Positions 6,018-38,757 of a DNA stretch of 64,000 nt are shown here, piece by piece. The stretch comes from a bacterium (GTDB lineage: Bacteria; Electryoneota; Electryoneia; Electryoneales; Electryoneaceae): positions 8,925 to 72,924 of the forward strand of contig JAIOHU010000287.1 in the NCBI GenBank assembly GCA_019912845.1. Reading direction: 5' to 3'. Both the position numbers and the translations under genes were made by a program. Within the stretch, counting starts at the first letter, position 1. Every line of letters starts with the position of its first letter. Below the pieces are notes generated by a model, which worked only from the letters and a program-made list of their open reading frames with translations, ran no database searches and had not been told where the DNA came from.

Positions 6018-6071
6018 CTCACACACCCTACCTTTCCTCAACCTCAGTTCTATCAAAGTTTCATACTGTAT

Positions 6072-8075
6072 ATGAAGATACGCACAAATTTAAGTCAATT
6101 CAGGGAAATCGCCCCCTGGGTTTTACCACTCTCGGTTGCTGTAATAGCTACGGTTATCCGTATTTTGTATCTGGCAGCAGCAGCAAAGCTACCCACCTTT
6201 TTAAGCCCGGGTATGGATGCAGAAATATACCGTAAGTGGGCTGACTCGCTCATCCAGGGCAATTCACCTGATATCCCCTTTTTCCGAGCACCTTTTTACC
6301 CCTATTTCATCGCCGTGTTGGGTAAAATGTTTCATGGCGATACTTTCTGGTCAATCCGAATTATTCAAATATTTTTCAGCTCCCTCTCAGCATCACTGCT
6401 TGCGGTTCTTGCCAGACGCTGGCTTGACTCTTCATTAGCCGGATGGATCGCAGGGGTCGGATGGGCGATATACGGTCTTTCCATCTATTTTGATGGTGAA
6501 GGACTTATCGCGAGTCTCTATACATCGTTTTTTATTCTCCTGATCTATCTACTGGATCATCATCGAAATCACCCTACCCTGCTCAGAACAATCTTCCCAA
6601 TACTGACCCTGGGTATACTGACTTTGTTACGAGCGAATGCGCTGCTCTGGTGGATCGTCGTTCCTGTCCTATTGATCAAACAGTCTAACTTTTATCATAA
6701 AAGATTCGATATTGAGCAAACCCGTAACCTCATAATTGCTATACTCCTCCTCTGCATGATCGTTACCCCAACTATCCTGCACAATTTACGTGCCGGTGGT
6801 GGTTTTGCCATCAGCACCCAGGGAGGTATAAACCTCTATCTTGGCAACCATCCAAGTGCAACTGGTGCTTATGCTGTCGATCCAGACTTTGGAAACGACT
6901 GGACGCGTGAACAAATCGAACATCGCGCTGAAGATATTGAAGGAAGATCATTAACCGCTGCTGAAATATCACGTTTTTATACCAGACTCGCATGGAAATA
7001 CTGGACGACCTCTCCAGTGGATGCCATTGAACTTACGGTTAAAAAATTCCTCCTGATCTTCAATAATCGCGAAATCGGCAACAACCGGGTACTGCTTCCC
7101 TTTATCCATGAAGTGTCACCCCTGCTTGCCGGGTGGGTAAAAATTAACTTTGCACTGATCGCCATTTTGGGACTATCTGGACTCGTTTATGGCTGGCGAA
7201 AGTTCACTAACCTTCGACCTGCAATTGTGCTGGCAGGGGTTCATTTGTTTGGCATATTGCCGTTTTTTATTACTGCACGATACCGTTTTCCAATTACACC
7301 GGTGTTGCTCATCGGCAGTACAGTTTCGCTTATCTATTTGACGCAGATTTTCAAGAAAGGATTAATGGAAAAAGGATTATTTCGGAAGTACTGGCAAATT
7401 GGAATTGTTGCATTGACAACAACGATAATAGTACTCGCCCCCAGCAGTGTTCATGTTGATTCCATGCCGATCGACCAATGGCTTTTCCATCAGGCGAATG
7501 CAGCTTTACGTTTGAATAGATTGGAGATTGCTACCACCAAATTTCACGAAGTCTTACATGAGAACTCGAACTACAAGGATGCTGCCCTGAACCTTGGTGT
7601 TATCCACCTGAGACAATCAGACTTTGATTCTGCAGGTTGGTATTTTGAGCGGGAACTGGAAACCTATCCAGATAATGTTAAAGCGTTGAATAATATGGGA
7701 GTCGTTGAGGAAAGGAATGACAACTTGCAGGAATCCAGAGCTTTTTATCAGCAAGCATTGCTTGCTGACCCGACCCATCTTGACGCACGGATAAACCTTG
7801 CAAGAATTTACAATCGACTCGCTGCACAGGCTATGCAAATACAAGATGTTGAATCAGCTTATAATTACCAGAAACTGGCACTGGAAACCACACCAAAGAA
7901 CCTGGATTACAATGTAAATTTTGCTGTTTACACCGCTGCGAAAGGAGATATCAGAGAGGCTGAAAGATTACTTCGAGACCTGCTTGATGTGCATCCTGAT
8001 CATCCCGGAGCATCGAGAGCTTTTGCACTACTCTCACGTTTCGAGGAATCGGACTCAACTTCCATCATTCGATAA
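6072..8075 (+). CDS. GT-C-fold glycosyltransferase-like membrane protein with a C-terminal TPR domain (paralogue of 3112-5157)
   Basis: It has a polytopic N-terminal domain with the same conserved blocks as the 3112-5157 gene. The C-terminal tail carries TPR-like repeats (..ALNLGVIHLRQSDFDSAGWYFERELETYPDNVKALNNMGVV..). The start was taken at Met23 (ATG 6072) of the ORF-track frame. Confidence 0.55.
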   Translation: MKIRTNLSQFREIAPWVLPLSVAVIATVIRILYLAAAAKLPTFLSPGMDAEIYRKWADSLIQGNSPDIPFFRAPFYPYFIAVLGKMFHGDTFWSIRIIQIFFSSLSASLLAVLARRWLDSSLAGWIAGVGWAIYGLSIYFDGEGLIASLYTSFFILLIYLLDHHRNHPTLLRTIFPILTLGILTLLRANALLWWIVVPVLLIKQSNFYHKRFDIEQTRNLIIAILLLCMIVTPTILHNLRAGGGFAISTQGGINLYLGNHPSATGAYAVDPDFGNDWTREQIEHRAEDIEGRSLTAAEISRFYTRLAWKYWTTSPVDAIELTVKKFLLIFNNREIGNNRVLLPFIHEVSPLLAGWVKINFALIAILGLSGLVYGWRKFTNLRPAIVLAGVHLFGILPFFITARYRFPITPVLLIGSTVSLIYLTQIFKKGLMEKGLFRKYWQIGIVALTTTIIVLAPSSVHVDSMPIDQWLFHQANAALRLNRLEIATTKFHEVLHENSNYKDAALNLGVIHLRQSDFDSAGWYFERELETYPDNVKALNNMGVVEERNDNLQESRAFYQQALLADPTHLDARINLARIYNRLAAQAMQIQDVESAYNYQKLALETTPKNLDYNVNFAVYTAAKGDIREAERLLRDLLDVHPDHPGASRAFALLSRFEESDSTSIIR

Positions 8076-9703
8076 AGTTCAAGACGCCAACGGTTTCCCA
8101 CCTGTCGAACACCCGTACTTTCAACCCCCAACTCCGGGTTCGCATCCGGACCTGGGCTGCTTTCTTCTGTGAGATGCCAGAATTGTGTTTTGCCATCAGC
8201 TTTCAGCAGCTCAAGTGTATGAGTCCATCCTGCAAAATTCCCGGGAAACAATGCACGAATATTGTGGAGACTTGGTCCAAGATCAGCACCCATATACCAA
8301 CCTGAAATGATCACCCATTCGCTCTGGCTGGCACGTTCCACAGAACGTCGCATGAATGCATTCCCCTGCCGTGCCTCAAGCAGCAGTAGCAACGAACTCA
8401 ATTGGATTAGAATACTGAACAGGAGAAACCCGCGAGCGATATTTTGCTTCGTTTTACCCAGCATCGGCAACTTCAAATAAGCAAAGACCGTTGCTACCGC
8501 GATAGCGGGTAACAATAACCGTGGACTATAGTGAATCCCGGGTGGAGATGGATTCGAGACTGTAACCAACAGAATGAATGCGAGAAGTGTAAGTCGCAGT
8601 TTTTTTTCTACCGAGTCTGTCACCGGGAAAAACCACCACAGTGCTGCAAATGGTACCACTGCCAGCCATCCAGTTTCTGCCGCCAGGTTCCCCCATTCAA
8701 CAGGTTTTGAAAGTCGTACTATCCAGATAACCATCAATCCGAGCAGACCGACCATTGTCAGCAGGGAATATTTTAAATCTTTTTGTCTGTTGCCAAGCGC
8801 AATGAATCCCAGAATTCCCAAGCCGATAATTATGTTTTTAATGCCCAGCCCTAAACCCAGGTCATTCTGGATTCGTAAAAAAACAGCCTTGATGCTGAAG
8901 TTTGCCAGACTTGCATTCTCTGTCCATTGCAACGGAAGAATGCTTTCAGTTTGCAGATAATTGAAGACCAGAAACAACGCAATGAGTGATCCTAATGGCA
9001 ATAGAAAACGGAGTAGCAGTTTTTTTGATTGAAAAATGAGTAAAACAATCGCCCACAACACCCCTTCGGGTCGTAACATAATTCCAATTGCTGAAAAAAT
9101 TCCTGCCCACACTGCCGACCGTGTTTTTTTCTCCAGCGAATAACTCAAACTTAGAAGTGCGAATCCCGTGAATAACGTATGTTCCCAAACTGTGAAGGTG
9201 TAAAAATACAGTGGTGTTGCCAGTATAATTACCACTGGCGCATTCAGGATTGATTCGTTAACCTTCACTGTTTTTCTTCTGAACTGTCCGCAGATACGGT
9301 AAGCTGCGAAAGCAGCGAGGAGTGTTCCCAGTAGAGAAAGCAACCGCATTCCCTGCTCCCCGCCAAACTTCCAAAATAAAGACCCAACTACGAGATATAT
9401 TGGACTGTACACACTTATCCAGCGATTTTCTGATTCCAGGAAACGTGCAAAGGGAAATCCATAGGGCAGGAACTTTCCTGAAGGATCAAGTTCCTCTCCA
9501 GGGTTTGGCAACGTGTAGGTGATATCTCCATCTTCTGCCACTGAAGCTGCTGCGAGGGCTTTCATGCCACCATCCATCCCCCAAAAGCCGTCCTTGTCAG
9601 GCAGATAAAACCCGGCAAGTAAAAAACCCAGCGTCAGAAGGTAAAAAAGGGCTATCCATATTGTACGGACAGCCCCTGAAGACTTTTTATCTGAATGTGC
9701 CAC
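8000..9703 (-). CDS. Third GT-C-like polytopic membrane glycosyltransferase (ArnT/PMT-like) with a C-terminal soluble domain
   Basis: About 12 hydrophobic helices fill the first ~430 aa (..LLTLGFLLAGFYLP..; ..RPEGVLWAIVLLIF..), followed by a ~130-aa hydrophilic tail. Its 3' end overlaps the convergent 6072-8075 gene by 76 nt. It is the last gene of the long minus-strand operon. Confidence 0.5.
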   Translation of the reverse strand: MAHSDKKSSGAVRTIWIALFYLLTLGFLLAGFYLPDKDGFWGMDGGMKALAAASVAEDGDITYTLPNPGEELDPSGKFLPYGFPFARFLESENRWISVYSPIYLVVGSLFWKFGGEQGMRLLSLLGTLLAAFAAYRICGQFRRKTVKVNESILNAPVVIILATPLYFYTFTVWEHTLFTGFALLSLSYSLEKKTRSAVWAGIFSAIGIMLRPEGVLWAIVLLIFQSKKLLLRFLLPLGSLIALFLVFNYLQTESILPLQWTENASLANFSIKAVFLRIQNDLGLGLGIKNIIIGLGILGFIALGNRQKDLKYSLLTMVGLLGLMVIWIVRLSKPVEWGNLAAETGWLAVVPFAALWWFFPVTDSVEKKLRLTLLAFILLVTVSNPSPPGIHYSPRLLLPAIAVATVFAYLKLPMLGKTKQNIARGFLLFSILIQLSSLLLLLEARQGNAFMRRSVERASQSEWVIISGWYMGADLGPSLHNIRALFPGNFAGWTHTLELLKADGKTQFWHLTEESSPGPDANPELGVESTGVRQVGNRWRLELYRMMEVESDSSKRESSAKALDAPG

Positions 9704-9712
9704 TAGATATTT

Positions 9713-11683
9713 CTAAAAATGCAGATTGGGGTCGTAGAACCACTCAAGCATTACATCCCAGCATTCAACAACATCGTCATACTCCACGAAATAGTAGGAG
9801 AACGATGTTAAGGCTGTTCTGTAACGCAGTTGAGAGAAGGTGAAGTTGACAACTTCGCCACGTTCATAACGAATTTCAACTGGCTTCAGATGGTAACGAG
9901 TCAGTGGATCATATCGGTAATCAACAGCCAACACATCATCATCTGACCAGGGTTCACCTTCGCTGTAGCTGACACGGATGAGATAATCATTTACCTCAAT
10001 TGGTTCGCCTTCCCAGTTGGCTTCACCATTGTTCAGCAATGTAAGATTCTGTATGGAGGTGACTCCGTCGGTATAAACCTTATCGTTTATAGTGCGTATG
10101 TAACAATCTGTCTGAGTTGGCGGATAATCAAAGGTCTGCTCTTGAGCAGTTCCTTCACGTAATGTCACCCGCGTTAAAACTTCAGAATCTTCATCCTCCA
10201 CTGCGACAACCAGGGTATCAGTCAGCGAGATGAAGTATTGCGTTGTGCTTGCTCCAGGCTTTCTTGCAATAATTTCTGCACCAGAAAGACCGAAGTTGTT
10301 TGGTGCATAGGTTGGCAGGAGATAATTTTCGCCAACCTTGCTAGTATCAAAAGTTAGATTGCGGAATTGCGGAAGCGCAGACCGTGTGCCTATAAAATCT
10401 GCCAGGGGCAGGTTTGCCTCTGTCCAGAGTGGACGTCCACTCAATGAATCTGCAAACAGATATTCATCCAGAAGCAGAGCACCATCGTCGCTGCCGGTGT
10501 TAGTTGTATCCAGCGCATGTTTTCCAACCATTCGCCCCTGATACCAGAGTCTTCCACCTACTCGCAGGTAATCGATCAAAATTTGATTACGAGATGAGGT
10601 ATAATCATCTACTTGATAATTGAGACGTTTGAATTGATCGTTCGCAAAGATCACCAACTTATATTGGTGCACCAACGAATTGGATATCCATGATTCACGA
10701 TTATTAATATCGGTCAACATTAACTGCCTGACATCAACGGTATCTGCGACAATATTCTCACCCAATACATCTGTCAATAGCCTATTGTAGAAATGTTTCA
10801 ATGAATCTGGTTCAGGTCGACCTTGCCCAACTCGTTCCAATGCTTCCACTACCAAAAGCATTCTATTCTCAAATGTCGGCTTGATAACATTGAACTCAAT
10901 TCTCGCCGGTGCAGTAGACAGTGTCAACCCATCATCACGTGCCCAGACATAGAGTGTGTAAAAACCAGTTTCCAGATTCGCCAGGACAATCCCAAGATTG
11001 TCACTAAAGGGTCGCTTGAAAATGGTATCACCAGGTGCTTTTACCAGTATAGGCTGAAATTCCAACGGAATTTTGTATAGGGAACGATCATCCGGGTCGT
11101 TTCCGCGCCAGGTGAATTGAATCCCAGGCCAAGTTGCCGTGATGGATTCGCCACTGTAAAGAGTGTCAGCCACATAAACACTATTACCTATCTCATCGTC
11201 TGTCATGCCAACCATTCCGATTTCCGGGATATTTGGTGGCTGATTAGAGCGAAAGAAAGTACGATATTTTATATCACTGGCTTCACCCTGATCATCAAAG
11301 CAACGAATATAGAAGATATGCTTTTGAATCTCTCCGGCAGGGGTGAGCAGATAGATACGTTCCTCTGTACTATTCGTGCTCGTCCACTCCTCTTCAGGAA
11401 TTTCACTTGCGTAAGCTTGTGGATTGTCAAATGCGGCAGAATCAGTTACATCCGCATAGGAATAGTATTCCACAAAGCCATCCGGGTCGTTCCCTTTCCA
11501 GTAGAGGATAGGTGCTGCACTGAACTGGGAAGAATCAAGAGGAACCGTCACAAAAGAAACATTAGGGCGTTGGTTCTCTTTCTCTGTGCCTTCCAGGTCA
11601 CCACATCCAATCATGGTAAATCCTGAGACCAGGACAACCAGAAGGATGAATATGCCCACTTTGATATATGTATGCTTTCGCAT
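9713..11683 (-). CDS. Large surface lipoprotein of unknown function with an internal duplicated motif
   Basis: The signal and lipobox are ..MRKHTYIKVGIFILLVVLVSGFTMIGCG... A motif repeats internally (ILYWKGNDPDGF / IQFTWRGNDPDD). The start was taken at Met17 to remove overlap with the upstream gene. No catalytic motif was recognised. Confidence 0.45.
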   Translation of the reverse strand: MRKHTYIKVGIFILLVVLVSGFTMIGCGDLEGTEKENQRPNVSFVTVPLDSSQFSAAPILYWKGNDPDGFVEYYSYADVTDSAAFDNPQAYASEIPEEEWTSTNSTEERIYLLTPAGEIQKHIFYIRCFDDQGEASDIKYRTFFRSNQPPNIPEIGMVGMTDDEIGNSVYVADTLYSGESITATWPGIQFTWRGNDPDDRSLYKIPLEFQPILVKAPGDTIFKRPFSDNLGIVLANLETGFYTLYVWARDDGLTLSTAPARIEFNVIKPTFENRMLLVVEALERVGQGRPEPDSLKHFYNRLLTDVLGENIVADTVDVRQLMLTDINNRESWISNSLVHQYKLVIFANDQFKRLNYQVDDYTSSRNQILIDYLRVGGRLWYQGRMVGKHALDTTNTGSDDGALLLDEYLFADSLSGRPLWTEANLPLADFIGTRSALPQFRNLTFDTSKVGENYLLPTYAPNNFGLSGAEIIARKPGASTTQYFISLTDTLVVAVEDEDSEVLTRVTLREGTAQEQTFDYPPTQTDCYIRTINDKVYTDGVTSIQNLTLLNNGEANWEGEPIEVNDYLIRVSYSEGEPWSDDDVLAVDYRYDPLTRYHLKPVEIRYERGEVVNFTFSQLRYRTALTSFSYYFVEYDDVVECWDVMLEWFYDPNLHF

Positions 11684-11702
11684 GCTTCCTACTCCTGTAT
11701 TG

Positions 11703-12329
11703 CTAGCGAATCTGCTGACCCAAACGTTCAATTTCTATCGCGAGTAAGCGTTTTCCTTCAGCCGTATTAACGTCATCAACTGTAAAGTTTGAATTCAGAG
11801 TTTGAACCCAACTGAAGGAGGAATCAAATTCCGTTTCCATGTAGAAGCACTGGGCAATTGTCCAGCGTAAATCTCGATAGTCAATATCTGTTCTGTGCTT
11901 GAAGATGTAGTTCGCATTTTCACCGAGTACCAGCTCATGTGCGGAAATAGCTGCTGTGTAATCATTTCTTGCCAGATGAGCAAACCCCAGACCGGCTTGA
12001 ATGTCATATTTTCCGCCCGGTTTCTCAAGACCGGTGTTCCAGCGAGTTAATGCGGCATCAATTTCTGACGAGCCAAGAAATATTGTCCAACCGGCACCAG
12101 AATAGGGGTCTGCTGAATCATATCCCTTTTTAATGGCACTATTGAAGTAATCCAGGGCGCTTTCAAAATCGGTATCTTCAAACGCTTTCCAACCATCTGA
12201 TGTTAATTCGATAGGACCAGCTTCAGCACTGACCGGATCATCGCCATCGGTACACCCAATAACAAGTAATACCATAAATGGTACGAGCAGATATATGATC
12301 GGTGAAACGTGAAATATTCGCTGTTTCAT
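11703..12329 (-). CDS. TPR-like repeat lipoprotein
   Basis: The lipoprotein signal is MKQRIFHVSPIIYLLVPFMVLLVIGC followed by TDGDDP. Helical repeat content fits a TPR-like fold (..ALDYFNSAIKKGYDSADPYSGAGW..; ..LGFAHLARNDYTAAISAHELVLGEN..). Confidence 0.45.
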   Translation of the reverse strand: MKQRIFHVSPIIYLLVPFMVLLVIGCTDGDDPVSAEAGPIELTSDGWKAFEDTDFESALDYFNSAIKKGYDSADPYSGAGWTIFLGSSEIDAALTRWNTGLEKPGGKYDIQAGLGFAHLARNDYTAAISAHELVLGENANYIFKHRTDIDYRDLRWTIAQCFYMETEFDSSFSWVQTLNSNFTVDDVNTAEGKRLLAIEIERLGQQIR

Positions 12330-12344
12330 CTCTTCTAAACCTCC

Positions 12345-16544: not shown

Positions 16545-16675
16545 CTGACCCACGACGTCACCTCGTATTCTAAAATCTCGTTCCACTGAATCACCCATTC
16601 CAAGACTCCACCAGCTTGTTTATTACAGCAAAATGATAATTGGCTGGCTTCGTATTTTCATAAACCTGCGACCAA

Positions 16676-17707
16676 TTATTTCAATACATATCCCAGGCTG
16701 AAACGATGCCATCCGCCCAGGTATTGGATTGTCGCATAGGTATAATCAACTTTGAGACCAATATTCCGCATGTACAAACCACCACCAAAACTCATCCCGG
16801 AAAATGAGACCATACCCTCTTCATCGAATACAGGGTATTCATAGAATGGGTTGTTATCTTTGTCTTCAACGTACTCTTCGTTCGAACTGCGTTTCCAACC
16901 GTTAATCTTTTTTCCGAAACGAAGCATCGCTGTCTCTTTGAAGGCATATTCAAAGCCGAGATGGACTTCTTCTGAGTTATCGTTGGGGTGTGTACCTTCC
17001 AAGCCCATGGTCAGACGGCTGTCATCTTTTTGCATAAGATCGACCGCTGTAGCAAACTTAAAGTTCTGAGGTAATGGGAAAGGAGTGGTTACATGCTGCA
17101 TATCCGGGCCGAAGTTGGAGATCAACATTGCGATACGCAGGGATTTCCACCCTGTATCGTAAAATGTGCCAACATCAACAGCCCATCCGAGAGCGTTTTC
17201 ATCAGCCAGATTCTCCTGGATATACTTGACTGATCCACCAACGGAGAACTTATCAGTTAACCTTTGGCTGTAACTAATCGCCGCTGCAAAGTCAGTAGCT
17301 CTAAATGTCTGACCATTTCCGTAGGGAAGCTGATAGGTAGTTACTGGCATATCATCTGTATATAGTGCCGTCATAGATGCGCCCACAGCAGCACCGTACA
17401 TCGGAAGTGGCATAACGCCGCCGATGTAGTCGAAGTTTACCCCTAACCCAGATGGAAAGGCCACATGGGTAAAGATCAACTCCTTCTTCTTGATATTCAC
17501 CAGTCCAGCAGGATTGTAGTATAACGCTGATGCGTCATCCGCTATCGCAAGAAACGCATCTGCCATAGCAACCGCACGCGAAGACACCCCAATCTTGAGG
17601 AAATTCACCCCGGTCGTTCCTACCTTGGCCTGACCAAACACCAGACCCGGAATGATCAGCGCAACAGCTAATCCGATTGCAAACCATTGCTTGCGCGTCA
17701 TGTTCAC
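16676..17707 (-). CDS. FadL/PorV-family outer-membrane beta-barrel (candidate T9SS shuttle, PorV-like)
   Basis: A signal peptide is present. The N-terminal block VGTTGVNFLKIGVSSRAVAMADAFLAIADDASALYYNPAGL matches the FadL/PorV hallmark (..ADDAS..NPAGL). The C-terminus is aromatic. It sits directly between two T9SS cargo genes, 8 nt after the upstream one. Confidence 0.5.
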   Translation of the reverse strand: MNMTRKQWFAIGLAVALIIPGLVFGQAKVGTTGVNFLKIGVSSRAVAMADAFLAIADDASALYYNPAGLVNIKKKELIFTHVAFPSGLGVNFDYIGGVMPLPMYGAAVGASMTALYTDDMPVTTYQLPYGNGQTFRATDFAAAISYSQRLTDKFSVGGSVKYIQENLADENALGWAVDVGTFYDTGWKSLRIAMLISNFGPDMQHVTTPFPLPQNFKFATAVDLMQKDDSRLTMGLEGTHPNDNSEEVHLGFEYAFKETAMLRFGKKINGWKRSSNEEYVEDKDNNPFYEYPVFDEEGMVSFSGMSFGGGLYMRNIGLKVDYTYATIQYLGGWHRFSLGYVLK

Positions 17708-17715
17708 ACTCCGCT

Positions 17716-20448
17716 TTATCGAATGATTACGAATTTGCCAACATCAATATGACCTTCATTTCCTGCAGTTCTATCTTCGACACTGAAGAAATACAGCCCT
17801 GAAACCACTTGCTGCTGGTTGCGGCTGTTGAGGTCCCAAACTTCTGCATGATCAGAAACCCAATTCGAAATTCGGTTTCCAGAAATATTATGATCTATTA
17901 AAGTAACAAGGTCACCAGAAACGGTGAAAATTCTGATATAGCATTTTTTAGGCAGATTGTAGAAATACATTCTACGATCTGTCTGTGGGAAATAATTCGG
18001 AGTGCCATCATTCCGGTTTTCCCATGCTACAAATGTTGTATCCACATCATAAATCAATTGCATGTGCTGCTGAGTATAGTCCATATCTGCTCTGTACGGA
18101 TTCGGCACGACACCTGGTTTCTTGCGGTCTGTGCCTGAGGGTGCCAGGTAGAGCATATTTGCGGACTTCGCAGTTTCCAATGGTTCAGTGCCTGAGAAGG
18201 GATCGCCATAGTCGAATGCTGTAACCGTGTAATAGCGCGGTATCATCGGGTTTGTTTCGCCGATATCGAACACATACATGGAATCAACATCAGGGTCTAC
18301 CAAGGATGCAAGCCCTATATTCGGACCTACTGGTCGCAGGAATCCGGTCACACCAAGTGTATTTGTCATTATTTCGGGCAATGTGTCCGGTTGAGTTGTA
18401 GCGATCGGGATAGACATCAATGAATCTCGCTCACTGTAGTAAGCGAAATCGATCCTGTCATATTCGGCAACCAGACTGAATTCTGTTTCCAGACCAGTAT
18501 TTGAGACATAGATGCGATACCCTTCAAAGTCTTGCAAACGACTGAACGGATCCTGATACTCCTCAGATTCTGATGGAAATTTTCCCCACTTCAAATAAAC
18601 ATTTTTTGTGTCAGAGCTGGAAGTTAGAATCGGCACTTCAGGTGGTGGTGGACCACGAAAATCGGGTTCCCCATCGCCCTGATCGAAAAGCTCGTTGTTA
18701 TAGGTATAATCGTATTGAATTGGACGAGGTGCCAAATCCTCTTCCAATTGGAAAACACCATCAAGTTCTCCGGAATCCGGTTCAGTATAAACTGCTGTAA
18801 ACAGTTCATTATTCCAGTTGATCCAGCGTAAGGTGTCACCGATTGAATCAGAATAGATTCCATCAACACCTACATCTTCGCCAAACCAGCCATCGCCATT
18901 GGTGTCAATCATCGGGTTATCATAGACTTTTGCAGCCCAGTCAGCGTTATACTGAAAATCTGAAAAATCAAACAACTCATAATCGATCTGTTCACTGCTG
19001 GGTTGCGGATGCTGACGGTCATGGAAGTTTTCACCAGCGACATAAGCTATTGTCATGGAAAACTTTTCACCCGGATTCAAGCGATAGATTCTATTTCCAC
19101 CTTCATCGATGTGATCAAAAACGCCCAACGGTCCCCAGGATAGCAGATAACGTGTATCAAAGCCATTGGCTAGATCATCGGCATTTCCGGCATCTGGGAT
19201 ACGCCAATCGTGAGCCTCCAAAACTTCGTTGGTGAATCGATTTACGAACTCCTGCGAATTACCACTGATGTACGCTGGATCATTGACACGAATCTGGTCA
19301 TAGTCAAATTCACGGTTTGAAAGCACAAAGTATTTTCTTTCATCGTCCTCGGGCGTGCCCAGTGTACCTGTCCAGTTACCAGGACTGTGATCATCTTCCC
19401 AGGCAGGACCAAAATCATTGTTTGCGTCAGTATTGGAAATCCACCAGTTGAATGATGTACGTAATTTTGGATTTGGAGCACGAACGACACGTGTTCCCGT
19501 AACTCCAGGTCCAGAAAAATCATTTCCTGAATTTACATTTCTTGGACGACCATCATTGTCCGAGATATAGGCTGTATTAATGGTCAGGGTATATTCCTGA
19601 TTGGATCCCTGAGGCTGATATTGATATGAAGTCTTAAAACCGCAAATATCATCCTGTGCACGGTTATTGCCCGATTCTGAAACGTGCCCGACATCCGCAT
19701 CAACGTACAAACCGACGAACAGGTTTTTCAGAAAATTGTTGGCAATATTTTCGATCTCATAATCGATAATGATAAAATCACGTGCATAGTTATATGACCA
19801 GGCATACGATTTTTGAGTAACCTTAATTCCGAGCGGGACATGGGGTCCATCACGCGGTGTGCTCAGCTCAGAACCGAGCGGACTGACTCTATGGGTATCG
19901 GTATAGGATGAAATAAAGTCCTGCTCTGAAACTGCCTCATCGCTGGTGATAAACTCACCAAGGCAATTATATGCATTTTGTCGTGAAGACCTTTCAACAA
20001 TTCCATTGCCAGGTTCATGTCCCGGGAAAAACTCACGTCCGAGATAAGGGTCATTCGCAGATGCCAGCCAACCTTCAACACCTGTCGAAACTCTGGCATA
20101 CTCAAAACCTTCTTCCTGAATAATAGCCCCAATCCACATTGCTCCCATAAAGAGATATTGAATGCCGCTATTAGCAGGGAATTCAGCTTGAGGCGACCAT
20201 TCACCAGTACAAGGGTCTTCCAGGAAACCATCTCTGTCGCTTCCATCATTTCCAAAATAACCATAATTCGTGATGGTCAGCCAGATATTCCCGACATCAT
20301 GTAATCTGTTTTCTGTCTGAATAACATCAATCGTAGGGTTGTATTCCGGTTTCACCGGCCCACGGTCGACAATTTCCTGAAAACGTGCGTATGCAGATGT
20401 TGCAATCAGCAAAGCAAGCAAAAGGAAAATGAAAGTTCTGAATTGCAT
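17716..20448 (-). CDS. Secreted 910-aa protein of unknown function with a T9SS-type C-terminal domain
   Basis: The signal peptide is MQFRTFIFLLLALLIATSAYA. The C-terminus ..IRIFTVSGDLV..WDLNSRNQQQVVSGLYFFSV..GKFVIIR resembles a T9SS sorting domain. No catalytic motif was recognised. Confidence 0.5.
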   Translation of the reverse strand: MQFRTFIFLLLALLIATSAYARFQEIVDRGPVKPEYNPTIDVIQTENRLHDVGNIWLTITNYGYFGNDGSDRDGFLEDPCTGEWSPQAEFPANSGIQYLFMGAMWIGAIIQEEGFEYARVSTGVEGWLASANDPYLGREFFPGHEPGNGIVERSSRQNAYNCLGEFITSDEAVSEQDFISSYTDTHRVSPLGSELSTPRDGPHVPLGIKVTQKSYAWSYNYARDFIIIDYEIENIANNFLKNLFVGLYVDADVGHVSESGNNRAQDDICGFKTSYQYQPQGSNQEYTLTINTAYISDNDGRPRNVNSGNDFSGPGVTGTRVVRAPNPKLRTSFNWWISNTDANNDFGPAWEDDHSPGNWTGTLGTPEDDERKYFVLSNREFDYDQIRVNDPAYISGNSQEFVNRFTNEVLEAHDWRIPDAGNADDLANGFDTRYLLSWGPLGVFDHIDEGGNRIYRLNPGEKFSMTIAYVAGENFHDRQHPQPSSEQIDYELFDFSDFQYNADWAAKVYDNPMIDTNGDGWFGEDVGVDGIYSDSIGDTLRWINWNNELFTAVYTEPDSGELDGVFQLEEDLAPRPIQYDYTYNNELFDQGDGEPDFRGPPPPEVPILTSSSDTKNVYLKWGKFPSESEEYQDPFSRLQDFEGYRIYVSNTGLETEFSLVAEYDRIDFAYYSERDSLMSIPIATTQPDTLPEIMTNTLGVTGFLRPVGPNIGLASLVDPDVDSMYVFDIGETNPMIPRYYTVTAFDYGDPFSGTEPLETAKSANMLYLAPSGTDRKKPGVVPNPYRADMDYTQQHMQLIYDVDTTFVAWENRNDGTPNYFPQTDRRMYFYNLPKKCYIRIFTVSGDLVTLIDHNISGNRISNWVSDHAEVWDLNSRNQQQVVSGLYFFSVEDRTAGNEGHIDVGKFVIIR

Positions 20449-20554
20449 AATTTATATCCCAAAAGCAACCGAATTAGCCAAACCTATAGTGTTGTACCCA
20501 ACTATTACCCGGGACAACGATATTTTACCAGTCGAACTGTGCTACATTTGCCGT

Positions 20555-22561
20555 TTATTGCCAGGCTTCTGGTCCGCCATACGCACCCATATCATTGCGG
20601 GTGCCATCTGGATCGTTAAACTCTGAATCCGGATTACCTGCATTTTTTCCGGGACTTCCTGCCTGCAGACGGAAATTGCCATTTTCAGCATCTACAAACC
20701 TGGGTTCTTCAAGCAGATTTATCGTATCGTCCCAGTCAAACCCACGGATGAAATTACCAGTCTCTGCCCGGCTGGAATAAACCGTACTGTACAGCAATGT
20801 GGGGCGAGCCGACACTTGCGCATCTACACCATACGAAAATTCATTGAAAATACAATTGGAAATTGTCGGTTTCGATGAATTGCTTACGCGAACCGCATGA
20901 CTGTTTGGACCATATATCGTAAAGTTGTTGATTACCGGGTTGGACAGTTCTTTAATAACCAGACCGCTTACATGTGCATTATAGATTAACACATTGTTCA
21001 TCACCGGATTACTGTTCAGCTCAAGCTGAACACCATAACCATCGATATTCGATATTATCGCACGAGTAACATCAGGGCTGGAGTTCAAATGACAATACAT
21101 TCCAATTACGCCAGCTGATTCAATCGTAAGGTCTTCAATAGTGGGACGAGCGCCATCAACAAGATACAGACCAACATTGTAAGAATTTCTGATTGTTACA
21201 TTTTTCAACTCAGGTGAACAACCATTCAAGCTTAATGCACCAAGAAAATGAGGAGCCGCGATATCGTCCGTAGAACCATGCTCGATGATAACATTGTGCA
21301 ATCTTGAATTATTGCTCGCACCATCAAGAAGGATCTGTTTCCAATCAGCACGTTTTGGGTTTTCCCTGCCGCTGGTAAACACGATAGGACGATTCTCCGT
21401 ACCCTCTGCGATGATTGTGCCGTAAACATTAAAAGTAAAACGTTCAATAAACCGAATTGTTACACCCGGATCGATAATCAGTGTATCACCTTCCTGCACC
21501 TCAACATCACAGGTTACATTATAAAACTCAAAATCATTCCGCAGATGAAGACGGCTTCCAACAAGAGTATGCGTCAGTTCATTCTCAGCCTGGAAATGCG
21601 GTAATGCGCCAACATCCGCTACTGTACCATCAGGATCAGCAGGGTCGTTCGGATCACCTTTGTCGATCGCTCCACTACACGGATGCAAACGATAATCCCC
21701 TGCTTCCACATCATAAAACTCTGGATTAAGGGAAACATCATTTTCCACATTTTCCAGCAAACCAAGCGGGAGATAATCCAAGGAGACGTTATTCCAGATA
21801 TCGTTATAGGCAATGGTCGCGGTCAGATTACTCGATCTGGCTCTAATACCAGAGTCATCGTTTTCTACCACGATGTTGTTGGTAATTGTCGCATTACCAT
21901 ACATACCTGCCAGGTTCGGTTCAATACGAATACCGTTGAATGAATTATTGGTGATGGTGTTATAGCTTATAACTGGATCAGATTCACCAATGATGTTGAT
22001 ACCATCATATCCCGCATTGTCGATAATGCAGCGGGTTATTGTAGGTGAACAGTCCAGGATTGTAATTGCACCACGATGCAGAATCGTGTCTATATAGGCG
22101 ATATTGTTCTCGTCATACGCACGTGTGGTGTCTTGAATTAAATTATACTTTGAAGCATAAGTAACCTGCACGTATTCCAGAATCGAGGTGTCATCTGCAT
22201 CCAGAAGCCAGATTCCACGCCAATCTCCTCTTCCCTTCGGATTCAGGTTGGAAGTGAAATGGATAAAGTTATCCTCGGTTCCTCTAGCAACCAGCTCGCC
22301 TTTGACCTCAAATGGGAAGAAGCCATTCGCATAGATTTCTACACCTGCATCTATGATCAGTGATTCTCCTTCGGGGACAAGAACCGCGTCGGTCATCACA
22401 TAAGGGCTGTTACCCGCAGAAAGCACACCGGAAACATTTCCATGCAATGATGTTTTATCACCACCACTCGACACCGGATCATCTTCGGTATCACAACCGA
22501 TGAAACCAATAGCTATGGTCAGGATGATGGATATCTGTATGAGCCTGTTCAACAACTTCAT
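20555..22561 (-). CDS. Beta-helix (PbH1-repeat) lipoprotein, a possible polysaccharide lyase or surface glycan-binding protein
   Basis: The lipoprotein signal is MKLLNRLIQISIILTIAIGFIGC followed by DTEDDP. There are two runs of parallel beta-helix repeats (..TITNNIVVENDDSGIRARSS..IAYNDIWNN..; ..NVLIYNAHVSGLVIKELSNPVINNFTIYG..). It ends in ..GAYGGPEAWQ with no T9SS tail, the same GxYGGP motif that follows the beta-helix in the 1417-aa protein. Confidence 0.6.
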   Translation of the reverse strand: MKLLNRLIQISIILTIAIGFIGCDTEDDPVSSGGDKTSLHGNVSGVLSAGNSPYVMTDAVLVPEGESLIIDAGVEIYANGFFPFEVKGELVARGTEDNFIHFTSNLNPKGRGDWRGIWLLDADDTSILEYVQVTYASKYNLIQDTTRAYDENNIAYIDTILHRGAITILDCSPTITRCIIDNAGYDGINIIGESDPVISYNTITNNSFNGIRIEPNLAGMYGNATITNNIVVENDDSGIRARSSNLTATIAYNDIWNNVSLDYLPLGLLENVENDVSLNPEFYDVEAGDYRLHPCSGAIDKGDPNDPADPDGTVADVGALPHFQAENELTHTLVGSRLHLRNDFEFYNVTCDVEVQEGDTLIIDPGVTIRFIERFTFNVYGTIIAEGTENRPIVFTSGRENPKRADWKQILLDGASNNSRLHNVIIEHGSTDDIAAPHFLGALSLNGCSPELKNVTIRNSYNVGLYLVDGARPTIEDLTIESAGVIGMYCHLNSSPDVTRAIISNIDGYGVQLELNSNPVMNNVLIYNAHVSGLVIKELSNPVINNFTIYGPNSHAVRVSNSSKPTISNCIFNEFSYGVDAQVSARPTLLYSTVYSSRAETGNFIRGFDWDDTINLLEEPRFVDAENGNFRLQAGSPGKNAGNPDSEFNDPDGTRNDMGAYGGPEAWQ

Positions 22562-22579
22562 TGTACCCTATCTCCCTGT

Positions 22580-25500
22580 CTAGAATTCAAAGCCGATTTT
22601 AAGCAGGATCTGACGACCCGGGCTGTAATTACGTGGATTTGCATCATAAGCAAAACGATCAATAAATGGATTATAGTCTGGATTCAATGGATGGACTGCG
22701 TAAATAGGACTACCAGTCTCAGCGTAAACACTACGCCAGTTTCTCTTATCCCAGACATTTCGAACCTCGACACCAAGAATCGCTTTCAAGGATCCAATAT
22801 CGAAGTACTTTTCGAGTTTAACATCAGTAGTTTCAGTCCAGGGCATACGCTCTGAATTCTCGAGAATCAGGTTTGGATTGATCCCTGTTGTGTATTCAGA
22901 TGGAGTATATGGCCGTCCAGAACCAAACTGCCACTGCATGGTCAACAACCAGTAATCCGGCAGACGGAAACCGAATAAGTATGGATGCTCACCCTTCTGG
23001 TACATCATCGCCCAGTTGAAGGTGACACGATGGGTTTCATCCCAGTCCAATGGATGCTCATCAAAGTTAACCGGAACATTCAATGAACGTCTCTCAAATT
23101 CAGCGTTCGCTGAAGAAGCTTTTCCAAAAGCGTAGGAAAAGTCATAGTTCAACGACATCTGGTAATGATTGTTGAAATTTTTATCCAGCTTCATTTCCAG
23201 TCCACGAGCACGACCATAATCAAGGTTTACGTAACGATAAATTGTAATCGGACCCACTTTTTCCGCAACAGTCGAGATCAGGTTATACATATCACGGTAA
23301 TAACCTGCGATCTGGAACGATACATCATCAGTAACCTGGGTATGAACACCTAGTTCGTAGGTAACGGTCTTTTCAAAGTCAAGATTTGGATTTCCTACAG
23401 TACCCTGATCAAGATTTGTGGTAGTTGATTTATAATAGTAGATGAAAGATGGAGTCTGGTAAAAGTGACCGTAGTTGAAATACATCTTAGAACGTTCAGT
23501 GATCGGGTGACTGATACCGAGACGAGGTGCGAATTGGAAATTACCTTTTTCCGCCAGTTTCGCCGCGGGTTCACCCGCTTCAAAACGTCGACGTTGTTCA
23601 TCAACTACAGCCTGGTCATGGACAACGAAGTCAGTACGCAGACCAGCCTGAACGATCAATCCCTCGAATTCCATCTTATCCTGGACATAAACTGCACCCT
23701 GCCAGGGTTTGTACTCCCAGAAATCTCGAACATCACCACGGTCTGAATAGGGTTGTTCATTGCCCACAGACGCTTCACCAGTGTAAGGCTGATCCGGGCT
23801 CTGGATTTCTTCCTGCGACATAATCCGGTACTTAAGTTCGGTACCAGCTTTTAATTCATGGAATGTATGTACCTGGCTCTGCCACGAGAACTTGAAAGTA
23901 TACTCTTCGGTGCGACGGCGTGACCAGATAGCCGCATTGTCCCAACGCCCCGGATTCAGGAAGTAGTCGATGTTGTTCCAACGGTTGTTGCCGTTATAAT
24001 CGACGTAATTCTCTTCACCTTCATCATACTGGAAATTCGGCACATTAAAACGCGGGTTATTTTCATCGTGAACTGTTCGGTTTGACCAGGTACTGTGCAG
24101 TTGATCGTAAGCAAGATAATCACTGTAAACCCATTCACTGCCATGATTACCTGTCTCCCACCATCTATCTTCCCACGTATACAATACTGGAAGACGTTGT
24201 GTCGATCCTTCATTGACTACAGGGTTGAATTGAGTAAACAGCTCATATTCATCAAAAATACCGTTTGGTGGGTCATATTTACCATTCAGAGTCGGGGTTA
24301 CAGTAAGTTCGTAACCCAACTGATCACCAAACTCATTTATAAGGCTGGTGCCATCTGATGAGGGCAGATCATAGAAAGGTTCGCCTGGATCCCAGCGACC
24401 ATTGTATTCGCCGGTTAACGGATCACGTAAATCAATGAACGGCTCACCTGTATCATTATAAATATCACCATCATAAAACGGTTCGGGTTGATCTTCCTGA
24501 GTATTGTCGACCAAGTCTTGACGATCCAACTGTCCATTGCTGTTGGCATCATCATACCCCTCACCATCGTCCTGCCTGCCATTACCATTCAAATCTTTGA
24601 AGGGTTCACCTGGATCCCAGGTGAAGTTTCCGTTCAAATCGGTAAATGGTTCGGTACGATCGAAAACACCATTTCCATTGGCATCCTGGTAACGTTCACC
24701 ATCCCATCTGCCATTGCCGTTCATATCCTGTTCGGCAAGCTGTGGTTCAGCGGGGTTCCAGACACCATCGCCATTCAAGTCTATATAAGGGTCCCAAGGG
24801 TCAAACACGCCGATATTGTTTACACCGGTTACCGGGTCGGCACGGTCTGTCCAGGGCTCAGCGAAATCGTAAACACCATTGCCGTTGAGATCGATCCAGT
24901 CTTCACCACGATCCCACTGACCATTCATGTTCAGATCTTCGTATCCTTCGTTCTCGCCTTCATAAGCCTGGTTTCCATCGTGGTCAAAATATCCGTCGAG
25001 GAAGTTGTTACCATCATTATCGAAACCGAGTTCATCAAATGTTTCACTATGTACAACACCGTCGCCATCTGCATCCTGATCCCAGCGACCGTTATTGTTC
25101 TGATCAATACCAGTAGCGATATTTTCTTCAATCTCATCAACCAGCGTAAATTCGCCCGGATTTTTTCCACGAGGTGAAAGGCTTGCGGTAAGCACCTGAC
25201 GTCCCACAGAGAAGTTCATTACACTTCTGGAGGAGAGCTGATTGGTAAAGTCTATATTAAAGGAGGTTCTGCGATCTTCTGCCTGGGGGCGATGTTCAAG
25301 GTTGTAGAGATATTGCCAGCCATAATTGCCACTGACAAATCCGGCACCATTCGGGTAAACATCGAACACACGTGCTCGTTCCATCATGTAGATTGATACT
25401 TTTTTACCACTACCGAGATCGTATGCCAGCTTCATACTTCCCGACCAGTCGTTGTACTGGCGACGAGGAACATCAAATCCTAGACCAGCATAGTCCTGGC

Positions 25501-26419
25501 TGCCATAATCGAGACCGAGGGGAGTATAGGTGTCGCTGAGTTTCACATTTCCAGTTACATAAAAGGTAATCGGACGATTGAAAAGCATCCCGGTGACAGG
25601 AACAGGGCCACCATAAGCAATATCAACACGATCTTCGTTGAACGAAAAATCATCGAAGACATCATCACTGAAGATATCGGTTGACCAGGCGATTGAACCA
25701 CTATAACCATCAACAGCACCTTCTGGTGTCGTGATGTTGACAATACCCGCAGTCGCATTTCCATATTCCGCAGCCATACCGCCTGTAAGAATCTGGATTT
25801 CCTGGACATTCACCGCAGCAAGGTTGACAGGAAGCACTTCACCAGTAATCGGGTCACGACTATCGATACCATCCACAATAAAACGTGATTCAGTGTCACG
25901 TCCACCACGGATATGAATCTTACCCTCATCGTCGATCTTGAAACCCGGCTCAGCAACAAGAGCTGCTGTAACATCATCGGTGGGCTTCATTGCCAGATCT
26001 TCACCGGAGATTTTGACCTCTTTTGAGGTGACACCGAGGTTTACTTCTGGAGCCTCATAAACCAGGGTAACTTCCCCAAGCTCCAGGGTCTGCTCTTGAA
26101 GTTTAAACTCCAGTTCTGTCGTTTCATCAGAACGGATTTCTACTCCGGTGTATGTAGCTGTGGCAAATCCCAAAGCACTGGCTTTTACAGTATATTCTCC
26201 CGGGGTAACAGCGACAATAAAGAAAACACCGTCCAGGTCTGTCGAAGCACCTTTCGAAGTTCCCTCAATTGTAACATTAGCACCGATAACCGCTTCGCCA
26301 GTTTCAGAGTCTGTCACAATACCTTTGATCTTTCCAGACGACTGAGCAAACGCTGTGGAACCCAGCGAAAGAATGAGCAGTACGAGTAAAACTGAAGACA
26401 ATATTCGAAAAGAACGCAT
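22580..26419 (-). CDS. TonB-dependent outer-membrane receptor (SusC/RagA-like architecture) with a large acidic tandem-repeat insertion
   Basis: The signal peptide is followed by a carboxypeptidase-regulatory-like domain (IKGIVTDSETGEAVIGANVTIEG..DLDGVFFI). The plug domain carries ..IHIRGGRDTE.. and the barrel ends in the terminal motif ..LLKIGFEF. A strong GGAGG ribosome-binding site lies 7 nt upstream. Residues ~438-685 are DxNGNG/WDPGEPF repeats. Confidence 0.7.
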   Translation of the reverse strand: MRSFRILSSVLLVLLILSLGSTAFAQSSGKIKGIVTDSETGEAVIGANVTIEGTSKGASTDLDGVFFIVAVTPGEYTVKASALGFATATYTGVEIRSDETTELEFKLQEQTLELGEVTLVYEAPEVNLGVTSKEVKISGEDLAMKPTDDVTAALVAEPGFKIDDEGKIHIRGGRDTESRFIVDGIDSRDPITGEVLPVNLAAVNVQEIQILTGGMAAEYGNATAGIVNITTPEGAVDGYSGSIAWSTDIFSDDVFDDFSFNEDRVDIAYGGPVPVTGMLFNRPITFYVTGNVKLSDTYTPLGLDYGSQDYAGLGFDVPRRQYNDWSGSMKLAYDLGSGKKVSIYMMERARVFDVYPNGAGFVSGNYGWQYLYNLEHRPQAEDRRTSFNIDFTNQLSSRSVMNFSVGRQVLTASLSPRGKNPGEFTLVDEIEENIATGIDQNNNGRWDQDADGDGVVHSETFDELGFDNDGNNFLDGYFDHDGNQAYEGENEGYEDLNMNGQWDRGEDWIDLNGNGVYDFAEPWTDRADPVTGVNNIGVFDPWDPYIDLNGDGVWNPAEPQLAEQDMNGNGRWDGERYQDANGNGVFDRTEPFTDLNGNFTWDPGEPFKDLNGNGRQDDGEGYDDANSNGQLDRQDLVDNTQEDQPEPFYDGDIYNDTGEPFIDLRDPLTGEYNGRWDPGEPFYDLPSSDGTSLINEFGDQLGYELTVTPTLNGKYDPPNGIFDEYELFTQFNPVVNEGSTQRLPVLYTWEDRWWETGNHGSEWVYSDYLAYDQLHSTWSNRTVHDENNPRFNVPNFQYDEGEENYVDYNGNNRWNNIDYFLNPGRWDNAAIWSRRRTEEYTFKFSWQSQVHTFHELKAGTELKYRIMSQEEIQSPDQPYTGEASVGNEQPYSDRGDVRDFWEYKPWQGAVYVQDKMEFEGLIVQAGLRTDFVVHDQAVVDEQRRRFEAGEPAAKLAEKGNFQFAPRLGISHPITERSKMYFNYGHFYQTPSFIYYYKSTTTNLDQGTVGNPNLDFEKTVTYELGVHTQVTDDVSFQIAGYYRDMYNLISTVAEKVGPITIYRYVNLDYGRARGLEMKLDKNFNNHYQMSLNYDFSYAFGKASSANAEFERRSLNVPVNFDEHPLDWDETHRVTFNWAMMYQKGEHPYLFGFRLPDYWLLTMQWQFGSGRPYTPSEYTTGINPNLILENSERMPWTETTDVKLEKYFDIGSLKAILGVEVRNVWDKRNWRSVYAETGSPIYAVHPLNPDYNPFIDRFAYDANPRNYSPGRQILLKIGFEF
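24365..25110 (-). repeat. In-frame tandem repeats encoding calcium-binding-like D-x-N-G-N-G / WDxGEPFxD units inside the TonB-dependent receptor
   Basis: Translated examples include ..IDLNGNGVYDFAEPWTD.., ..IDLNGDGVWNPAEPQ.., ..DMNGNGRWDGERYQD.., ..DANGNGVFDRTEPFTD.., ..DLNGNFTWDPGEPFKD.., ..DLNGNGRQDDGEGYDD.., ..ANSNGQLDRQD.. and ..YNGRWDPGEPFYD... The periodic Asp/Asn/Gly pattern resembles thrombospondin-type-3 / EF-like calcium sites. Confidence 0.55.
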
Positions 26420-26624
26420 ATTCTACCTCCCTCCAAGATCCCGTAAGTCAATGGATCATGTAAGGTAAGCTCGCTTGTTTAACAATGGCAAGCCTCAATG
26501 ATTCATGAGGCATTAATAATTTTTACATTTTCTTCACATTTTGACTCTGCATTTCAGTCATAACACAAGAGATGAAATGCGTGTTGCTGTTCATCAATTG
26601 AGCTAAAATCACCGAAATAAGAAA

Positions 26625-26668
26625 ATCTATGTAAAAAACAGGCTGCCTGAAACTTGCCAGGCAGCCTG
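26625..26668 (-). terminator. Rho-independent terminator of icd
   Basis: The stem CAGGCTGCCTG (26639-26649) pairs with CAGGCAGCCTG (26658-26668) around an 8-nt loop. It lies 12 nt past the icd stop. On the minus strand it is followed by TGTTTTTTACAT. Confidence 0.6.
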
Positions 26669-26679
26669 ACTGTAATCAA

Positions 26680-31542: not shown

Positions 31543-31584
31543 AAGAGCTGCCTTCACATCTGGAGGCAGCTTTATTGTTTTATC
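31543..31584. terminator. Bidirectional hairpin terminator between the convergent POT and Mut7-C genes
   Basis: AGCTGCCT (31546-31553) pairs with AGGCAGCT (31564-31571) around a 10-nt loop, extendable by A-T/G-T pairs. TTTATTGTTTTAT follows on the plus strand. Confidence 0.5.
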
Positions 31585-32318: not shown

Positions 32319-32328
32319 AACAAACCTC

Positions 32329-38726: not shown

Positions 38727-38757
38727 AAAATTCGTTTTCTATATGGGGGAAGTTTTC

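Follow-up and report, generated by a model that had tools for sequence, protein, structure and literature searches.

The SusC/SusD-type polysaccharide-utilisation loci (PULs) of Bacteroidota begin with the gene of a TonB-dependent receptor (TBDR), immediately followed by a lipoprotein gene, and encode further surface proteins with carbohydrate-associated folds. The chitin utilisation locus of Flavobacterium johnsoniae combines SusC/D-like pairs with ChiA, which is secreted by the T9SS (type IX secretion system). In the PorZ-PorQ, PorU-PorV and SprB-SprF pairs, a large secreted protein is coupled to an outer-membrane barrel of the PorV/PorQ family, and the gene order in Bacteroidota is porU then porV. 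In this work we analysed an eight-gene surface-protein locus in a 64,000-nucleotide stretch of an Electryoneota contig (JAIOHU010000287.1; the whole stretch is called the window below). Two further systems bear on it: the pectin loci of Bacteroides thetaiotaomicron, where DUF5123/DUF4957 beta-helix proteins are annotated beside TBDRs (PMC10434189), and Oar of Myxococcus xanthus, a TBDR needed for protein secretion (PMC6434023).

The cluster shares the gene organisation of the SusC/SusD loci, and the CarboxypepD_reg-type extension and plug of its receptor fit the SusC model. Unlike those loci, it has no SusD, carbohydrate-active enzyme (CAZyme), regulator or catabolic genes, the receptor barrel fails the SusC model, and the receptor carries a large insert of Ca-loop-like repeats. 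TonB-dependent uptake and T9SS cargo come together in it as in the F. johnsoniae chitin locus, but the latter has SusD-like proteins, a GH18 enzyme and regulators, and no dedicated PorV-like barrel. As in PorZ-PorQ, PorU-PorV and SprB-SprF, a large secreted protein with an end resembling the T9SS C-terminal domain (CTD), here named P910, is followed by a PorV/PorQ-family barrel; unlike those pairs, this one is embedded in a TBDR operon and its barrel scores under the PorV, PorQ and PorV2 equivalog cutoffs. The C-terminus of P910 is weakly PorZ-like, while its body is a supersandwich rather than the beta-propellers or C25 peptidase of PorZ/PorU. The receptor has its CarboxypepD_reg extension, plug and barrel in common with Oar, but Oar has neither the Ca-loop insert nor the lipoprotein partners nor the T9SS context, and the cluster has no PopC-like substrate gene (PMC6434023).

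By analogy, the cluster most resembles a SusCD utilisome with T9SS-delivered accessories, and the DUF5123/DUF4957 proteins of the pectin loci are the nearest annotated parallel to its receptor-lipoprotein pair. We propose, with a probability of about 0.4, that it encodes a constitutive, TonB-energised, utilisome-like complex for capture and uptake. The proposal starts from the observed secretion and lipoprotein signals, the domain identities and the co-conservation of gene set and gene order; from these we infer the interactions, topology, ligand and direction of transport. The cluster appears to be undescribed so far, as an earlier note on this DNA had supposed: literature searches gave no paper describing it, the genome paper on Caldithrix abyssi is silent on it, and terms for TonB, T9SS or gliding do not occur in the Electryoneota/Hatepunaeota paper. 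The host belongs, as also supposed, to a non-Bacteroidota lineage of the FCB group (Fibrobacterota, Chlorobiota and Bacteroidota); Candidatus Electryonea clarkiae (Electryoneota) is the closest relative with a name. The genome is an NCBI MAG (metagenome-assembled genome) with locus tags K8I28_, and exact-sequence look-ups of two of its proteins gave no record.

Gene organisation and conservation of the cluster

ORF listing recovered eight co-directional open reading frames (ORFs) on the minus strand at 8000-26419, exactly where the earlier note had placed them, and curated hidden Markov models (HMMs) agreed with seven of its eight protein classes. The eight-gene surface-protein locus is real, and so is the coupling, on one strand, of a TBDR and beta-helix proteins with T9SS cargo and a PorV/PorQ barrel specific to the cluster. 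Two figures needed correction. Intergenic gaps had been given as 8-106 bp, but the gap between the barrel gene and the next T9SS cargo gene is 131 bp with the start used there (16544); that cargo had been given as 1417 aa, which needs an upstream ATG at 16598, whereas the coordinates 12345-16544 give 1399 aa. From the receptor to LP656, a 656-aa lipoprotein, each product has a Sec or lipoprotein signal.

One genome per GTDB species was scanned, giving 80 loci, 46 of them with full flanks, and the window proteins were compared by tblastn. The cluster type was found in 31 of the 46 fully flanked loci and in 34 loci overall. The TBDR, the beta-helix lipoprotein, P910 and the PorV/PorQ barrel were each present in 31/31 fully flanked cluster-type loci, LP656 in 30/31, the 1399-aa protein in 24/31 and the TPR lipoprotein in 20/31. 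The synteny suggested for checking proved robust: the order TBDR, beta-helix lipoprotein, P910, barrel, LP656 recurs across more than 30 independent loci, and the arrangement therefore far exceeds chance. The organism labels, all of metagenome-assembled genomes (MAGs), include Calditrichaeota, Caldithrix, KSB1, LCP-89, Zixibacteria, Electryonea, Hatepunaea and Tariuqbacter. Two variants were seen: in LCP-89 and Zixibacteria the barrel gene is relocated after the TPR gene, and KSB1-like loci are without the pair of 1399-aa and TPR genes. Across phyla, conservation is highest for the receptor, P910 and the barrel (median identity to the window proteins 48%, 52% and 50% respectively), followed by LP656 (36%), the beta-helix lipoprotein (31%) and the 1399-aa protein (28%).

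The cluster is single-copy per genome, vertically inherited across phyla and usually beside icd. In the window, icd (26680-27999) lies directly upstream of the receptor gene, as in 25/31 cluster-type loci. The strong intrinsic terminator of icd (26639-26668, minus strand; 12-bp stem with 8 GC pairs, T-run) forms the 5' boundary of the operon, leaving its promoter and 5' untranslated region within 26420-26638. A receptor controlled by a vitamin or a riboswitch was considered and rejected, with zero Rfam riboswitch matches within 7500-27200. The gene of a Mut7-C RNase (31572-32399) is likewise syntenic with the cluster, and the gene order around the cluster, including icd and Mut7-C (in locus L001, 1196-3852), shows unusually deep conservation across phyla.

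The receptor and the lipoproteins

The receptor (1279 aa; 22580-26419, minus strand) has a signal peptide, a CarboxypepD_reg N-terminal extension (69.3 bits, Pfam/NCBIfam), a plug and a barrel. It scores as a TonB-dependent transporter for both the plug (PF07715, 31.6 bits, cutoff 23.9) and the 22-strand barrel (PF00593, 79.9 bits, cutoff 27). By contrast, the SusC/RagA model TIGR04056 gave only 80.9 bits against a cutoff of 368.25, and aligned with residues 30-236 (profile positions 2-208 of 981), which correspond to the extension and plug. Pfam gave no STN domain in the receptor, and a PDB sequence search returned carboxypeptidase-D-like domains only. Orthologues from the 34 loci are 43-67% identical to the window protein.

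An Asp/Asn/Gly-rich insert at residues ~435-640 (24500-25117, minus strand) contains 11 DxNxNGxxD Ca-loop-like motifs with a period of ~15 residues. Between 7 and 12 such motifs are present in all 36 full-length receptor orthologues, and few blocks of the protein are as well conserved as residues 451-600. The insert is predicted to be a Ca-binding loop domain, presumably extracellular in topology. An antisense ORF of 229 aa (24488-25177, plus strand) lies exactly over it and is most likely an artefact of repeat codon composition, not a gene.

The beta-helix lipoprotein (668 aa; 20555-22561, minus strand; lipobox FIGC) is encoded 18 bp after the receptor (median 70 bp across loci). It matched Beta_helix (108 bits) and, at its C-terminus, DUF5123 (47.1 bits, cutoff 35.1), and is built from a pair of beta-helix modules, both with a PxFxD...DxxGxxR...GAYGG motif as cap. 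We consider that it may be a surface-exposed partner or lid of the receptor. The 1399-aa protein (12345-16544, minus strand) is a T9SS cargo made up of a first beta-helix, choice-of-anchor D/ASH immunoglobulin (Ig)-like domains, a second beta-helix, a beta-sandwich region and a type A CTD; it is a paralogous double beta-helix with Ig-like inserts. Its CTD passed TIGR04183 (27.0 bits, cutoff 23) and was below the cutoff of Pfam PF18962 (20.4 vs. 27), and the CTD motifs NYPNPFNP...SGxYFYRL...KLxLLR are kept in 23 orthologues. Missing from the KSB1-like loci, it is an accessory module. The GxYGGP motif reported to be common to both beta-helix proteins was confirmed (GAYGGP at residue 659, GLYGGP at residue 1060).

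One reading is a conventional PUL, in which the beta-helix proteins would be depolymerases of the pectate-lyase or GH28 type, the kind of enzyme for which the first reading of this DNA had suggested a test. The right-handed beta-helix repeats and the receptor-first order agree with it, as do weak matches of some orthologues to Pect-lyase_RHGA_epim (5/27, best E 3e-6) and Pectate_lyase_4 (1/27, E 0.002). However, no D, E, K, R or H is invariant among the 27 orthologues of the beta-helix lipoprotein, and just 5 charged residues are invariant in the 1399-aa family. No CAZy-type family matched consistently: family models of the lipoprotein were the generic Beta_helix, NosD and DUF5123, PDB matches were to AlgE/AlgG repeats (a PDB search with the single sequence found nothing), and neither beta-helix protein showed a specific GH28 or lyase family HMM or a conserved catalytic Asp, Lys or Arg. 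The degrading role first considered for the beta-helix proteins thus finds no support. They do not map to any named adhesin family either. Of the two findings that together were to refute the first reading, the missing catalytic signature was observed and the mapping to known adhesin families was not.

Further PUL components were also sought. No glycoside hydrolase, polysaccharide lyase or carbohydrate esterase family scored above threshold in the eight proteins. No sensor or regulator (hybrid two-component system, SusR, or extracytoplasmic-function sigma/anti-sigma factor) was found in window positions 1-32000 or among the called genes of loci L001-L003. A SusD-like gene, an inner-membrane transporter, a catabolic enzyme and TonB/ExbBD genes were all missing both from the window and among the genes called in related loci. 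The cluster thus fails the PUL tests of full-length SusC, SusD, CAZymes and regulator. From the earlier PUL-like description, the receptor-first order, the single strand and the lack of SusD stand (none of the eight proteins has a SusD-family match in Pfam/NCBIfam), while a full SusC match, a regulator, a transporter and a catabolic gene are wanting. With these absences and a single copy conserved across phyla, the conventional PUL is largely refuted and we regard it as highly improbable.

The small TPR lipoprotein (208 aa; 11703-12329, minus strand; lipobox VIGC) is always encoded directly after the 1399-aa protein (median gap 9 bp). A disguised SusD was considered for it and rejected, as only generic TPR models and structures matched. 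LP656 (9713-11683, minus strand; lipobox MIGC) comprises two WxGxDPDG Ig-like domains, a central alpha/beta domain and a C-terminal beta domain (structure model with a predicted local distance difference test score, pLDDT, of 88.9). Its central domain is GATase1/ThuA/IFT52-GIFT-like, without the catalytic Cys, and therefore lacks the Cys-His-Glu triad of class I glutamine amidotransferases. All three lipoproteins of the cluster tend to have acidic residues directly after the lipobox Cys, with C-DTEDD in the beta-helix lipoprotein and at least two acidic residues in 23/23 TPR lipoprotein orthologues. In Bacteroidota, an acid-rich stretch at this position marks surface export. The resemblance to this signal would favour a surface complex for capture.

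P910 and its PorV/PorQ-family barrel

P910 (910 aa; 17716-20448, minus strand) consists of a signal peptide, a ~550-aa supersandwich with inserts, an acidic segment, a poly-Pro linker, an FN3 domain and a CTD-like end, a divergent beta-sandwich at residues ~816-910 (nucleotides 17719-18003). The C-terminal beta-sandwich was seen in the AlphaFold2 model (pLDDT 79.6). Neither P910 nor LP656 matched a Pfam/NCBIfam family, and a PDB sequence search with P910 found nothing. The N-terminal domain is a galactose-mutarotase-like supersandwich, a carbohydrate-associated fold. Compared to the supersandwiches of GH15, GH65, GH94, GH116 and GH174 enzymes and aldose epimerases, it is only ~8-13% identical, has large inserts, comes without an accompanying (alpha/alpha)6 catalytic domain and differs in its set of conserved residues. 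The likeness to the GH174 fold is a lead only, as the fold is not set out in a review. Across 134 distant P910 relatives, conservation reaches at least 90% at ~20 polar positions (N61, D184, H203, N234, D266/267, D297/299, N334, D345, D369, Y373, E380, D382, S437, H476, D510/515 and D592/596), which makes P910 the sole plausible enzyme candidate of the cluster.

Homologues of P910 formed 1317 clusters at 90% identity, and the best 120 were all at least 50% identical and all unnamed. A profile search of 1.84 billion representatives (50% clustering level) gave 4267 relatives, many of which share the N-terminal ~500 residues only. Among eight long distant relatives scanned, six had a Por_Secre_tail and/or FlgD_ig CTD, each over the Pfam cutoff on at least one model, and four of these six also had an FN3 domain. 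Judging by these canonical CTDs, the N-terminal domain of P910 is a widespread unannotated T9SS-cargo domain. One distant relative, P0316, is a stand-alone cargo with uninformative gene context. The CTD of P910 itself is highly conserved among orthologues and stayed below HMM cutoffs: TIGR04183/Por_Secre_tail gave 13.8 bits vs. 23 (E 0.043), CHU_C an E of 0.079 and the PorZ C-terminus an E of 0.0027. P910 had been listed as a T9SS protein without qualification; its distant relatives speak for this and its own CTD scores do not, and we conclude that it is probably a T9SS substrate.

Residues ~508-600 (18700-18900) contain a conserved acidic segment, DxNGDGW[FY]GEDxGxDG, before the poly-Pro linker. 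It recalls the Ca-loop repeats of the receptor, and both may share a ligand or be in Ca2+-mediated contact.

The barrel (343 aa; 16676-17707, minus strand) begins 8 bp after P910. It belongs to the PorV/PorQ family (NF033709, residues 31-341, 189.4 bits, cutoff 90; NCBI name 'PorV/PorQ family protein') and was below every equivalog cutoff (PorV 71.2/250, PorQ 81.6/220, PorV2 96.3/325). The best 120 PorV matches were all orthologues, and no separate housekeeping PorV of the same genomes came to light among them. In every sampled genome, a single cluster is accompanied by a single 'solo' P910 paralogue; the pairing was followed in the window (17716-20448) and in loci L010, L013, L014, L033, L035, L038, L054-L060 and L068. 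The barrel was present in 31/31 cluster loci and, at comparable score, in none of the loci with a solo P910. In a neighbour-joining tree, cluster and solo copies were sister clades inside each phylum-level lineage, not two ancient clades, which suggests concerted evolution or repeated duplication. No broadly conserved neighbourhood was found for the solo paralogue. A peptide-uptake role, raised by an MFS/PTR2 transporter gene beside it, was dropped because this neighbour is kept among close relatives only.

The succession of a CTD protein and a PorV-family barrel with an 8-bp gap mirrors the porU-porV order. P910 and the barrel might accordingly be read as a PorZ-PorQ or PorU-PorV analogue which presents a glycolipid anchor, within a lineage-specific T9SS attachment or sorting sub-complex whose clients would be the products of the other genes. 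The weak PorZ matches and high conservation of the P910 CTD, its sugar-binding-type fold and the nearby GT-C genes would fit. However, P910 matches the PorU sortase and PorZ models in its C-terminal ~80 residues only, a second, solo P910 exists without a barrel, the thousands of relatives of the N-terminal domain look like ordinary CTD-bearing cargo, and the strict linkage to a TBDR is left unexplained. We therefore consider this sub-complex improbable.

Transcription unit and putative glycosyltransferase genes

The last gene of the cluster (8000-9703, minus strand) encodes a polytopic LA_3751/LA_3752-like putative GT-C glycosyltransferase of 567 aa with 9 predicted transmembrane segments. It aligned with NF047440 over residues 19-508 (E 2.5e-39; 135.4 bits, under the cutoff of 200). 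The eight genes had been described as an operon with no internal terminator, but a terminator- or attenuator-like hairpin is present at 9641-9677 (minus strand; 14-bp stem followed by U6, dG -21.2 kcal/mol, z -4.0), 36 nt past the LP656 stop and within codons 9-21 of the GT-C ORF. In ~15 orthologous loci, equally stable hairpins of unrelated sequence, often followed by T-runs, occur at the same site. The conserved hairpin and U-tract suggest a main transcript of seven genes that starts with the receptor and ends with LP656, the GT-C gene being expressed via attenuated read-through. The putative glycosyltransferase gene is indeed adjacent and last, as initially described; its coupling to the operon was overstated.

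A second, convergent GT-C gene, PMT_2-like with a C-terminal TPR domain (6006-8075, plus strand), is a conserved neighbour and overlaps the 3' end of the LA_3751-like gene by 76 bp. In many loci, tblastn places it downstream of the cluster and opposite in strand. Even locus L072, which is KSB1-like, still has a divergent LA_3751-like GT-C gene and a convergent PMT_2-TPR GT-C gene after LP656, and the association of the cluster with GT-C genes is therefore judged to be old. Conserved adjacency alone is weak functional evidence for the link, since icd is linked just as faithfully. In the same region (3112-8075), two GT-C genes of the PMT_2 type, both with a TPR domain at the C-terminus, flank an FGE-sulfatase/SUMF1-like gene.

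These neighbours bear on a different reading, a housekeeping module for a surface structure (coat, adhesion or gliding-type) or for export. The receptor barrel would be a TonB-energised platform or exporter like Oar, the beta-helix/Ig proteins would be structural or adhesive, P910 and its barrel would anchor or process them, and the GT-C enzymes would glycosylate the assembly. Single copy, ancient vertical inheritance and fixed position are in line with this, and so are the lack of regulator and catabolic genes, the beta-helix proteins without catalytic residues, the two GT-C genes adjacent even in the most divergent loci, the resemblance of the LP656 central domain to IFT52/GIFT and OST48-type domains, and the requirement for Oar, with the same extension, plug and barrel, in protein secretion (PMC6434023). 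On the other hand, characterised TBDRs are nearly all importers, the GT-C gene lies behind the conserved hairpin, adjacency counts for little given icd, no known adhesin or S-layer family matched any of the eight proteins, and the conserved polar residues of P910 look like those of an enzyme or binding site rather than structural ones. The housekeeping module is the main rival of the capture and uptake reading, possible though somewhat less likely.

A tentative model for capture and uptake

In the capture and uptake reading, which we favour, the seven genes that begin with the receptor and end with LP656 would encode one outer-membrane and surface complex, like a SusCD utilisome but built from other parts and probably constitutive. 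The TonB-energised receptor would be its transport core and the Ca-loop-rich insert its extracellular hub. The beta-helix lipoprotein would sit on the outer face of the receptor in a non-catalytic role, either as a ligand-binding lid or as a surface protein that binds glycans, and LP656 and, where present, the TPR lipoprotein would likewise be placed there. P910 would be exported by the T9SS and stay cell-bound, its conserved divergent C-terminal domain docking in the barrel encoded next to it, as PorZ does in PorQ. The P910 supersandwich may bind, and possibly cleave or modify, a polymeric ligand, most likely a glycan or glycoconjugate. The 1399-aa protein could be a T9SS-attached accessory binder that was lost in some lineages. 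Captured material would be drawn into the periplasm via the receptor, and the GT-C enzyme would be expressed by read-through only and may glycosylate these surface proteins or a lipid.

Several observations support this model. The order is conserved in 31/31 loci, the gaps between receptor and lipoprotein genes are short, the Ca-loop insert is conserved, and P910 combines a carbohydrate-associated fold with conserved polar residues. Docking of P910 in the barrel is supported by the weak PorZ likeness of its C-terminus and by the strict co-occurrence of the barrel with cluster-type P910, and export by the T9SS by the CTD-bearing relatives and the abundant T9SS cargo in the genome.

Other observations weigh against it. 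The regulator, SusD-like protein, CAZymes, transporter and catabolic enzymes of an uptake locus are those found missing above. Bacteroidota PULs are many and variable, whereas this cluster is one conserved copy per genome across phyla, and its vertical inheritance beside icd is unlike that of substrate-specific uptake loci. The candidate TonB box of the receptor (LELGEVTLV, residues ~112-120) lies in a region poorly conserved among 37 orthologues. The GT-C genes persistently adjoin the cluster, and Oar is a precedent for a TBDR of the same architecture active in export (PMC6434023).

A more speculative and rather unlikely reading takes the cluster as a hitherto unrecognised, phylum-spanning outer-membrane machine of Calditrichota, KSB1, Zixibacteria, LCP-89 and Electryoneota which builds, remodels or moves a glycosylated surface structure and does not import food. 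It would join a TonB-powered barrel with a Ca-binding extracellular hub to an enzyme that the T9SS delivers and that a PorQ-like barrel of its own retains, and, if true, would be a new functional class for TBDRs and PorV-family barrels.

The cluster defines two large unannotated protein families, the P910 N-terminal domain (4267 representatives at the 50% level) and LP656. It also carries a receptor subtype with a conserved Ca-loop insert, and all three are linked with a private PorV/PorQ barrel in what is apparently a module of the core genome in several sediment phyla that are uncultured. Should the cluster be an uptake complex, 'utilisomes' independent of SusD exist beyond Bacteroidota and recruit T9SS cargo via dedicated barrels; if it is a machine for surface assembly or export, the known roles of TBDRs and PorV-like proteins are wider. 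Either reading provides targets for annotating thousands of 'hypothetical' proteins. Caldithrix is the cultured genus of this radiation, and as MAG-derived loci labelled with its name (L029 and L052) carry the cluster, there is reason to examine the genus.

Other genes in the window

Three further T9SS cargo genes on the plus strand, all over the Por_Secre_tail cutoff, were found in the 64 kb; they encode an S8 subtilase (33012-36125), a propeller protein with LVIVD repeats (38743-42132) and a member of the penicillin-amidase family (57990-60134). At 44950-52592 (minus strand), a DUF4249 protein comes after a 2134-aa T9SS-CTD protein that contains BACON_2, a segment resembling ThuA and several CarboxypepD_reg domains. 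One ORF at 36248-38398 (plus strand) fuses a urea-transporter (UT) membrane domain with an M23 peptidase domain.

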